From the NCBI RefSeq assembly GCF_050920415.1, contig NZ_CP169309.1: a DNA stretch of 64,000 nucleotides, one strand, 5' to 3'. Both the position numbers and the translations under genes were made by a program. This document shows positions 15,461 through 38,404 of this stretch, piece by piece; position 1 is the first letter of the stretch; each line of letters starts with the position of its first letter. The notes beneath the pieces are model-generated. The model was not told the origin of the DNA and did not search any database. It saw only the letters and a program-made list of their open reading frames with translations. This DNA comes from Escherichia coli. Lineage in GTDB: Bacteria > Pseudomonadota > Gammaproteobacteria > Enterobacterales > Enterobacteriaceae.

Positions 15461-15733
15461 TTAAGCCATGCGTGCGAATTCAAGCGCTTTGCATTCATAG
15501 TCTTCTTCTGCCTGTTCCACTACACGGATAATCATCTGATCGGCGTTTTCGAAGCCATAACCTTTAGCGAATTCATTAGCACCGCCTTCGTGGTCATGTT
15601 CTGCGTTCATCGCTTCCACATAGTGGAACTCAAGATTGTTAAGGTAGGGACTAGAAACGCCGTCCTCTTTTTCAATCAGATCCCAAATTGCATTGAATCG
15701 GGACTCTGTTTCTTCGTTAATCCAGCGTTTCAT
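15461..15733 (-). CDS. hypothetical acidic protein
   Basis: 90 aa; GGAGGG SD; preceded by a 108-bp intergenic region with an inverted repeat and a G13 tract. Confidence 0.4.
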   Translation of the reverse strand: MKRWINEETESRFNAIWDLIEKEDGVSSPYLNNLEFHYVEAMNAEHDHEGGANEFAKGYGFENADQMIIRVVEQAEEDYECKALEFARMA

Positions 15734-15774: not shown

Positions 15775-15808
15775 ACAAAATGGCACTGCCGAAACAATGC
15801 CATTTTGT
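15775..15808. promoter_or_regulatory. inverted repeat ACAAAATGGCA-N12-TGCCATTTTGT (operator/promoter-like)
   Basis: Perfect 11-bp arms at 15775-15785 and 15798-15808; overlaps a TGTTATAAA extended -10-like element on the minus strand. Confidence 0.4.
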
Positions 15809-15815
15809 AAACTTT

Positions 15816-15828
15816 GGGGGGGGGGGGG
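15816..15828. repeat. homopolymeric G13 (C13 on the coding strand) tract
   Basis: 13 consecutive G at 15816-15828 in an intergenic region directly next to the inverted repeat. Confidence 0.9.
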
Positions 15829-15841
15829 TAGATCACGCTTT

Positions 15842-16057
15842 TTATTCGTCCTGCTTGAAGGCCACTACAACCGCGCGATCTTTGTTCTGAATCAACCACC
15901 AGCCACGCGCCTTGCTTGGCGCTGCATACCATAAGTGACCGTAAGTGTCTGTGACAACTAAAAACGGGTTTTTCTGTAATCCGCCTGGCTTTTCCGCTTC
16001 GTACTGGCAACCGTCCTCAAAACAATCAAGATCAGATCCGTGACACGTTAAAATCAT
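15842..16057 (-). CDS. hypothetical protein
   Basis: 71-aa ORF. Confidence 0.35.
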   Translation of the reverse strand: MILTCHGSDLDCFEDGCQYEAEKPGGLQKNPFLVVTDTYGHLWYAAPSKARGWWLIQNKDRAVVVAFKQDE

Positions 16058-24563: not shown

Positions 24564-24782
24564 TTAAGCCTCAATAACACCGTAATCAAACGTGCCTAAA
24601 TACCGTTCGATACTTACAACCTCAATACCATCAATGCACCGTTTCCACACAGACACCTGGCTTTCATTTTCTCTGAAGTGCATATTAGAAAGCACTTCAT
24701 CGGCTGGATAGCCTTTCCCAGCGGCGTAGGCATCGTGACCTACGCCACCTTCTACGCAATAAAGCATGAATTCGCGTTCCAT
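24564..24782 (-). CDS. hypothetical protein
   Basis: 72 aa; GGAGG SD. Confidence 0.4.
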   Translation of the reverse strand: MEREFMLYCVEGGVGHDAYAAGKGYPADEVLSNMHFRENESQVSVWKRCIDGIEVVSIERYLGTFDYGVIEA

Positions 24783-24863
24783 TTTTGCTTCCTCCGCACC
24801 GTAAACCTTTTGATTTCGGATTACAAAACGGATATGCGATTACAATACATAATGTATATTCAT

Positions 24864-24879
24864 GTGATCGGAATCACTC
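24864..24879. promoter_or_regulatory. CRP-like palindrome TGTGA-N6-TCACT
   Basis: TGTGATCGGAATCACT in the intergenic region upstream of gene 24564-24782, flanked by an ATACAT-A-ATGTAT palindrome. Confidence 0.35.
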
Positions 24880-24881
24880 GG

Positions 24882-25501
24882 TTAATGCAGTACACGTTTT
24901 CCCTGTTCAGGCATCGGCTGTGCGTTTTTCCTTGCATCGTTAAGCGTAGCGATAGCTGCCTGTACTCCCAAAACACTAGCGCGCATATCATCGCCAACAA
25001 AATTACCGTAAAGCACAGGAATAAAAGCCTTAATGTTATCTTCTTCGTGTCCTTCCTCAATAAATTTCTGCAACATCTTAACTTCAAATATTTTTTCATC
25101 ATTCCGCGAATAGAATACAAAGAAGCGCTACCCATTCTGTTTTCATCAATAGGGAAGATAACAGCACTACCAAAAGCCATAGGATCAACATCTTCAGGCA
25201 CTGGAACGCGTCCGAATTCTTCCTCCATGCGTTTTACAAAAGAAAGGCAGAATACATAACGCGCCACCGTTGTTTTTTCTTCCAGGCTTAAAGACACGTA
25301 ATCGCGGATTGACGCATCCATCATAATATCAACAATATGTAGCGCCAGGTTTAAATCACCGTCATACACGCCAGCATCCATATCTTTTAATACTTCGTGA
25401 TAATCCTTAGTTACCACTTCGTGAAAGCTCGCGTCTTCTGTGTAGCGAGTGATTAACATGCCTTCGCTGCCGAGTGAATAAGCTGTTTTGATGTTGTTCA
25501 T
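24882..25501 (-). CDS. hypothetical protein with an apparent -1 frameshift at an A6 run (programmed shift or pseudogene)
   Basis: N-terminal ~135 aa in one frame; a protein-like C-terminal 64-aa ORF in the -1 frame ends just before the intergenic region; frames join near A6 at 25091-25096. Confidence 0.35.
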
Positions 25502-29088: not shown

Positions 29089-29736
29089 TTATGGCAGGTT
29101 TACGATCTTCGCATCAACCACCACACCTATGATTTTTGATTCTGGATTCATAGGGATTGGCGGATACAGAGGGTTGAGCGAACGTAAAAGCCTTTGACCT
29201 CCATCAATAATCAACTGTTTAAACGTCGGTATCTGCCCTTCCTCAAGCTGGGCTATAACCAGTTTGCCGTCAATAGCTGGCGCGTGCGGATCGACAAGTA
29301 TCATCGTCCCCGCTGGTATACTCAATCCTTGCGGCGCGTTCATTGATTCGCCTTTAGCTACCAGCCAATAACTATCATCTGAACAAATAACGCTAGTCGT
29401 AACGTGTGGTAATGTTGATCGCCTTGTATCATCCATATTGTTTACTGTGTCCTTCCAGTCAACAACCGGGTAACTGCCTAAATCACGCTGCGGCGCTCCC
29501 GGTAACGTGTTAGAAACAGAATCATCAATGACCATTCCATCATGTGTAACAGTGAATTGCCGACGACCAAGCGCCCGCATAATCCGCGCAATATCTTCAA
29601 GATTTGGCTCGCGGCGACCGTTAAGCCAGTGTGACAGGCCGCCTTTAGTTATCCCCATGAGATCCGCGAGTGAATCCTGGCTCATGCCTTGCGCTCGCAT
29701 GAGCTGCTTTGCTAAGTCATACCATTTTGTTTTCAT
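29089..29736 (-). CDS. CI-type prophage repressor (HTH + S24 LexA-like peptidase domain)
   Basis: 215 aa; N-terminal XRE-type HTH (QDSLADLMGITKGGLSHWLNGRR), C-terminal AKGESM serine and downstream Lys of S24 self-cleaving repressors. Confidence 0.75.
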   Translation of the reverse strand: MKTKWYDLAKQLMRAQGMSQDSLADLMGITKGGLSHWLNGRREPNLEDIARIMRALGRRQFTVTHDGMVIDDSVSNTLPGAPQRDLGSYPVVDWKDTVNNMDDTRRSTLPHVTTSVICSDDSYWLVAKGESMNAPQGLSIPAGTMILVDPHAPAIDGKLVIAQLEEGQIPTFKQLIIDGGQRLLRSLNPLYPPIPMNPESKIIGVVVDAKIVNLP

Positions 29737-29795
29737 GTCGCTACCCTATAACCTCAAAAAGTTTGATACAAGTCACAAAATGTATTTTTCAAGTC

Positions 29796-29823
29796 TTGAC
29801 CTAAAAACGCCATTCTGTAAACT
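29796..29823 (+). promoter_or_regulatory. pR-like sigma-70 promoter overlapping an operator-like motif
   Basis: TTGACC, 16-bp spacer, TAAACT; GCCATTCTGTAAACTT overlaps the spacer and -10. Confidence 0.45.
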
Positions 29824-29900
29824 TGCAGACAAGGTAGGGCCATAGTTGCAAAGACGCAAGAAAAAAGATAACGGAATAGCACAAAAAGGCGCATACCTTA

Positions 29901-29933
29901 TGCTCTTTAATAATCTGGTGTCGCTGCGAAGCG
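29901..29933 (+). promoter_or_regulatory. nutR-like site (boxA TGCTCTTTAATAA + boxB hairpin)
   Basis: TGCTCTTTAATAA, then TCTGGTGT, then CGCT-GCGAA-AGCG in the pR leader. Confidence 0.5.
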
Positions 29934-30041
29934 AAAAACAAATATCACGCAACGGCGGGATCTGTTAAGCGGTCAATCACTGCTACCTAATACTAATGGG
30001 ATACCCGCCCGCGCGTTCACTCTAACATAGGAGAAAACACA

Positions 30042-38057: not shown

Positions 38058-38404
38058 AATCGCCCCTTATTTGGTGCACAACATGGTACACAAATCATGG
38101 TTTACGCAATATAACGCAAAAGCGCGCTTGTTTACAGCGAAAACCAGTAAATCTACTAAATTCATGGCGTTAGGGGTGATTTTGCTTGCGTATGTTTACG
38201 CTTGTGCGCGGTATGTAGCATTAGAAAGAGAAATGCTGCTGACCAACAGCGCACAACACGTGACTGAAACAGAGTGCTTCATAAGTTACCCTCAAACCTG
38301 CGTTAATAATCATGCGTAATTATTTGTTTCGCCTTAAAGAAATGCAAACAACTTCCGGCAAAAAAGTGATACGAGATCGATAACATAGCGTTGAAGAAAA
38401 GGAT
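38058..38404. mobile_element. prophage right attachment junction (exact att core not determinable)
   Basis: Non-coding region between the integrase 5' end and host mpaA; no tRNA recognised. Confidence 0.35.

Follow-up and report, generated by a model that had tools for sequence, protein, structure and literature searches.

The feature under study is a gene of 620 nt on the minus strand (24882 to 25501) of the window, by which we mean the whole 64,000-nucleotide stretch of Escherichia coli contig NZ_CP169309.1 (assembly GCF_050920415.1) that was analyzed. A listing of open reading frames (ORFs) with translations gives two here, a 213-aa ORF reading from 25501 to 24860 and a 64-aa ORF reading from 25076 to 24882. 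The second lies in the -1 frame of the first, since the offset between their starts (25501 - 25076 = 425 nt) equals 2 modulo 3. The two frames meet at a T6 run on the plus strand (25091 to 25096), which on the coding strand is an A6 run within GGAATGATGAAAAAATATTTG. A first-pass annotation had described the two ORFs meeting at the A6 run and their -1 relationship, and both are present as described. The coding strand at the site reads ...CGC GGA ATG ATG AAA AAA TAT TTG AAG..., and codons K136 and K137 of the upstream frame are exactly the A6 run. Translation in the -1 frame, which opens 12 codons before the run, gives ...EKIFEVKMLQKF...KRVLH*.

From position 1 to about 38.2 kb the window is occupied by a prophage of the mEp021/mEpimmI group, which runs past the left window end and is 82 to 92% identical to mEp021, mEp010, mEp013, mEp044, mEp515, mEp554, and MagusPhagus. 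Positions 38214 to 64000 are E. coli chromosome, comprising the mppA side and then ycj, psp, and puu genes. The right prophage/host junction falls at about 38214 to 38224, inside the 5' end of mppA, a gene in which integration of mEpimmI phages has been reported (PMC11893012). In the genome NZ_CP169399.1 (L013), abgT and mppA are annotated as frameshifted pseudogenes, and what the window keeps of mppA matches the copy in that genome exactly, save for 3 mismatches at the junction. The split gene itself is located in the leftward early operon, between the Erf, SSB, and Abc2 genes and a Dam methylase gene. Gene order is the same as for the mEp021_25 family, following a 110-aa gene and preceding a 72-aa gene and the Dam methylase gene, with the difference that the copy in the window is frameshifted.

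Full-length alignment to orthologs identifies the stretch from 24882 to 25501 as a disrupted copy of a 621-nt early-operon gene encoding 206 aa; from the same start to the same stop, there are 620 nt in the window and 621 nt in the orthologs. Codons 1 to 137 (25091 to 25501, minus strand) form the native-frame N-terminal part on the evidence of translation, protein alignment, and predicted structure, and they cover a predicted N-terminal domain, a disordered linker, and the first 12 residues of a C-terminal helical domain. The native-looking part is 137 aa, against an earlier estimate of about 135. The true-frame C-terminal part, I138 to H206 plus the stop codon, lies in the -1 frame at 24882 to 25091 (minus strand) and shares base 25091 with the A run. 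The ORF listing places the out-of-frame tail of the 213-aa ORF, 76 codons and a stop codon, at 24860 to 25090 on the same strand. The true stop codon, TAA, is at 24882 to 24884, and the tail runs 22 nt past it (24860 to 24881). The first-pass annotation had taken this C-terminal tail to run through an intergenic regulatory region, which holds for the last 22 nt; the remainder is the gene's own last third, read out of frame. As for the 64-aa ORF (24882 to 25076, minus strand), both the ORF listing and the protein alignment identify it as the gene's C terminus counted from an internal methionine, Met143. It is not a separate gene, and its start is not conserved, since position 143 is M in some orthologs and A in many others.

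A spacer of 99 nt (24783 to 24881, minus strand) separates the true stop codon from the operon's following gene, which encodes 72 aa (24564 to 24782). Just past the stop codon it holds a palindrome, GTGATTCCGATCAC (24864 to 24877, minus strand; GTGAT-TCCG-ATCAC), that is largely kept in relatives. A scan of the coding strand of the spacer for promoters and terminators gave no promoter-like or terminator-like match. In mEp010, a small CDS (mEp010_35) is annotated over the equivalent of this spacer, and it is probably an over-call.

The corresponding genes of related phages, mEp021_25, mEp010_34, and MagusPhagus CDS0108, are each annotated as a single 621-nt CDS encoding 206 aa. When the sequence repaired by one added A was searched against 5.8 billion protein clusters, 453 homologs were found, and the best 120 of these are all 206 aa in length, save one of 205 aa. 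Members of the family are 76 to 97% identical to the repaired protein. Both pieces of the split gene align end to end with this single 206-aa family, and the alignments show that the split did not arise as a chance arrangement of ORFs. With one A restored, the protein is 96 to 97% identical over its full length to those of the two nearest relatives at the DNA level, L004 (GCA_021504315.1) and L005 (SRR1664384). The repaired junction, MMKKIFEVKMLQ, is exactly as encoded by the closest proteins, P0001 to P0005 (95 to 97% identity), which read ...SIRGMMKKIFEVKMLQKF... at this point, and the 69 amino acids after the shift, taken in the true frame, are identical to those of P0002.

The DNA comparison locates the difference at a single base. 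L004 and L005 both read ATG ATG AAA AAA ATA TTT, with seven A's where the window has six, and the three sequences otherwise agree over about 240 nt around the site, the single gap being inside the A run. That gap is the sole one in the gene against the nearest intact allele. Since the nearest relatives have A7 between identical flanks, the window feature amounts to an A7 tract shortened by one base. Such an A run occurs in the closest subclade only; elsewhere codon 137 encodes K, N, S, C, or E (for example, in DNA reading AAAAAC, AAAAGT, or AAATGC). Exact look-ups of the 213-aa product and of the 64-aa product in protein records gave no entry for either, and the out-of-frame tail had no homolog in the 5.8 billion protein clusters. 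A scan of IMG/VR for A5 to A8 variants with the same flanks likewise found none.

The repaired protein matches the profile phrog_1515 with an E value of 4.5e-54, residues 6 to 206 aligning to profile positions 4 to 203 of 203. By this profile match, the gene is assigned to PHROG 1515 as a mEp021_25-like member, a hypothetical early-operon protein of mEpimmI phages. Pfam gave no domain in the repaired protein, PHROG 1515 is annotated as function unknown, and the paper describing the mEpimmI phages does not discuss the gene (PMC11893012). An exhaustive HMMER search of 1.84 billion representatives recovered one narrow family and a single distant relative at 26% identity. An AlphaFold model built on a 14-sequence alignment (pLDDT 72.7, pTM 0.66) has a confident N-terminal domain at residues 1 to 98, with three strands (5 to 9, 15 to 20, and 27 to 32) and three helices reaching residue 96, followed by a low-confidence linker (99 to 126) and three C-terminal helices (126 to 193). 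Fold searches with this model gave no match in the PDB (best E value, 0.65) or in BFVD (best E value, 0.15). Because the shift after residue 137 lies within the first C-terminal helix, the product of the A6 allele is predicted to be without the C-terminal domain. According to the model, it would carry, directly after the N-terminal part, 76 unrelated residues, among them a hydrophobic stretch.

The split almost certainly reflects a non-programmed loss of a single base, either by mutation or by assembly error. Our preferred reading, to which we give a probability of roughly 55%, is a genuine and very recent mutation in which one A was lost from A7, leaving a young pseudogene in an otherwise intact resident prophage. 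We infer that the loss is present in the DNA of the strain, beyond the assembly, and that it originated by replication slippage. Slipped-strand mispairing during DNA replication would have converted A7 to A6 (ATG ATG AAA AAA ATA to ATG ATG AAA AAA TA). Translation would then leave the correct frame after Lys137, continue through 76 meaningless codons, and stop 22 nt past the real stop codon. The resulting product would retain the N-terminal domain without the C-terminal helical domain, and background-level slippage would supply at most traces of the full-length protein. Such an event would have to be recent, since the 69 downstream codons differ from those of L005 at only 2 positions, both of them synonymous.

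Homopolymer length errors are the commonest residual error of assemblies, and a one-base miscount in a 7-mer is typical of polished long-read assemblies. It is quite possible, though it is not the reading we prefer, that in the strain itself the run is A7 and the 206-aa gene intact, the consensus having dropped one A. An error of this kind stays in consideration since nothing downstream has decayed, which is equally expected from a miscounted base. The A6 allele is also unique to the window sequence among the records searched, and exactly one base differs, in a 7-base homopolymer within an otherwise identical stretch. The rest of the assembly speaks against it, however. The 25.8 kb of neighboring host DNA (38214 to 64000) shows 4 mismatches and 0 gaps against NZ_CP169399, the independent complete genome of MFDS1022581, and all 14 homopolymers of at least 6 bases between 49000 and 64000 are without an indel in that comparison. 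The prophage gives a similar picture. Of 87 MagusPhagus ORFs of at least 70 aa that match the window, the gene described here is the one genuine gene split over two frames, and the other 86 are not frameshifted, although the window holds 70 runs of at least 6 bases. In addition, genuine frameshift alleles of the same gene occur in several independent assemblies, as described below. Since the host DNA is without indels and the other compared prophage genes are intact, a real and very recent mutation is slightly favored over a sequencing error.

The first-pass annotation had named a pseudogene, a sequencing error, and programmed frameshifting or transcriptional slippage as the three options; the first two both stand, while the third failed every test run. 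The layout does resemble that of known -1 sites. A-rich motifs direct -1 frameshifting in dnaX (A_AAA_AAG), in IS911 and IS3 (A_AAA_AAG), and in IS1 (A_AAA_AAC). The window shares with these programmed sites the AAA lysine codons at the junction of overlapping frames that a -1 shift would join. A -1 shift of the ribosome on AAA AAA, or one extra A added to the mRNA by RNA polymerase, would restore the orthologous protein exactly and yield truncated and full-length isoforms. By the published definitions of slippery heptamers and tetramers, A_AA.A is among the tetramers able to shift before a strong pseudoknot, although it is the weakest of the six that respond to one (PMC4066793). In contrast to dnaX, IS911, IS3, and IS1, however, the window is without an in-frame X_XXZ_ZZN heptamer, a Shine-Dalgarno-like stimulator upstream, or a hairpin or pseudoknot downstream. 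The zero frame is AUG_AAA_AAA_UAU, so that the candidate heptamer is G_AAA_AAA, in which X differs from XX, and the weak tetramer A_AA.A is the sole slippery motif in frame. Tetramers lacking a stimulator shifted at 0.147% in reporter assays in E. coli, against 0.112% for controls (PMC4066793). The 60 nt downstream of the site fold at -3.2 kcal/mol (z score, +0.38) and the 100 nt downstream at -16.5 kcal/mol (z score, -0.35), neither better than shuffled sequence, and the 20 nt upstream hold no GGAGG-like sequence. A search of Rfam returned nothing above threshold, its sole hit being PhrS at an E value of 0.18, far below threshold.

Rescue by transcriptional slippage would likewise use an A run in which a one-base insertion in the mRNA restores the frame. 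Thermus dnaX is reportedly rescued by slippage at T9, and a frameshifted tssM gene of Citrobacter rodentium is said to be rescued by slippage on poly-A. Such rescue in E. coli involves A or T runs of at least 9, whereas the run in the window has only 6 bases. The mEpimmI phage group uses the RNA polymerase of the host together with Nus factors (PMC11893012), and slippage by the E. coli polymerase requires at least 7 T's, and longer runs in the case of A (PMC6260861), with efficient slippage documented at runs of 9 (PMC5009743). An A6 run is therefore below the length at which this polymerase slips. The comparative data weigh in the same direction. The split arrangement occurs in no ortholog, those listed being single-frame genes of 206 aa (one of 205 aa), and the two-frame layout is thus not conserved, in contrast to the programmed sites above. 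The A run itself is found only in the closest subclade, with codon 137 variable beyond it. The proposal of two isoforms made by recoding accordingly did not survive the comparison with orthologs, which gave one continuous frame, the outcome that its authors had themselves named as contrary to it. On the strength of these comparisons, programmed recoding appears close to refuted already, and we regard it as highly improbable.

Frameshifts in this gene are not limited to the window, the PHROG 1515 family being repeatedly frameshifted in natural prophages. At a first A run (window equivalent, 25273 to 25278; locus position, about 1725 to 1731), A6 has become A7 in at least 6 contigs from 4 independent samples (L008 to L011), an allele that splits the gene into ORFs of 105 aa and 115 aa. 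A third independent allele, in an ENA metagenome scaffold (L012, locus position about 930), is a 1-nt deletion in GAAGAGGAA that gives a 117-aa product, P0122. In L009 (ERR13369342), other DNA has taken the place of the gene's 3' half and of its usual downstream neighbors (locus position, about 1830 to 2180), and the NinG and RusA genes come immediately after the frameshifted 5' part; this replacement is either further decay or a mosaic deletion. The alleles at the first A run and in L012 indicate that the gene is dispensable in lysogens and that its A runs are prone to mutation. More broadly, the repeated frameshifts in PHROG 1515 genes suggest that these are dispensable, or mildly counterselected, in the lysogenic state.

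These alleles raise the question of a contingency switch, in which the tracts at 25273 to 25278 and 25091 to 25096 would toggle the gene on and off with raised frequency, and selection in some lysogens would favor the off state. Such a scheme places the window at the second tract and the lineage of P0123 at the first. Different lineages carry independent +1 and -1 alleles at the two A runs. Furthermore, the intact MagusPhagus gene differs from the frameshifted L010 by 8 substitutions, whereas the frameshifted L008 and L010 differ from each other by 19, a pattern that suggests recurrence, reversion, or recombination. Together, the two sets of observations make repeated slippage or reversion conceivable, but recombination among mosaic prophages accounts for the substitutions equally well. 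For a phase-variation locus, moreover, tracts of 6 to 7 bases are short. Within the family there is no conservation of the second tract, and the great majority of homologs are intact. In the two nearest backgrounds, the second tract (25091 to 25096) has no recorded A6 or A8 allele, and exact look-ups of the A8 product predicted for these backgrounds found none. We consider a contingency switch unlikely. A crude on/off switch, in which lysogens slipped by one base in either direction would be favored because leaky expression is costly and reversion would follow when the phage needs the gene, seems to us just as doubtful. In a weaker version of the same idea, background -1 slippage on AAA AAA would give traces of full-length protein that are enough for function.

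The preferred reading of a recent single-base loss matters little beyond annotation and is of an ordinary kind, a homopolymer frameshift in a prophage accessory gene. The window resembles other prophage pseudogenes of this class in having a single-base change in a short A or T run relative to intact orthologs, in affecting an early accessory gene not expressed in the lysogen, and in the presence of other decayed alleles of the gene in other strains, L009 included. It differs from ordinary prophage gene decay in that the rest of the prophage looks intact and nothing downstream has decayed. The proper annotation is one frameshifted gene (a pseudogene), neither two genes nor a recoding site; if the strain truly has A7, it is an intact gene of 206 aa.

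Several smaller features of the prophage were recorded in the course of these comparisons. The spacer at 29737 to 30041, between a cI-like repressor gene (29089 to 29736, minus strand) and the first rightward gene, carries three single-base indels relative to MagusPhagus and is most likely noncoding regulatory DNA. In this spacer MagusPhagus has an annotated 96-aa CDS (CDS0002), for which the window has no open frame. One more match that looked like a split ORF, at 29684 to 29984, was rejected because PHANOTATE had over-called it in intergenic DNA of MagusPhagus near cI, and two further flags for split ORFs were antisense ORFs. Elsewhere, a G13 homopolymer occupies 15816 to 15828 on the plus strand, in the spacer between minus-strand ORFs at 15842 to 16057 and 15461 to 15733, and adjoins an inverted repeat of the type AAAATGGCACTGCC...GGCATTTT (about 15780 to 15812). 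No run of this length is expected by chance, and MagusPhagus has GCTGAG at the same place; the tract could be hypervariable or an oddity of the assembly.
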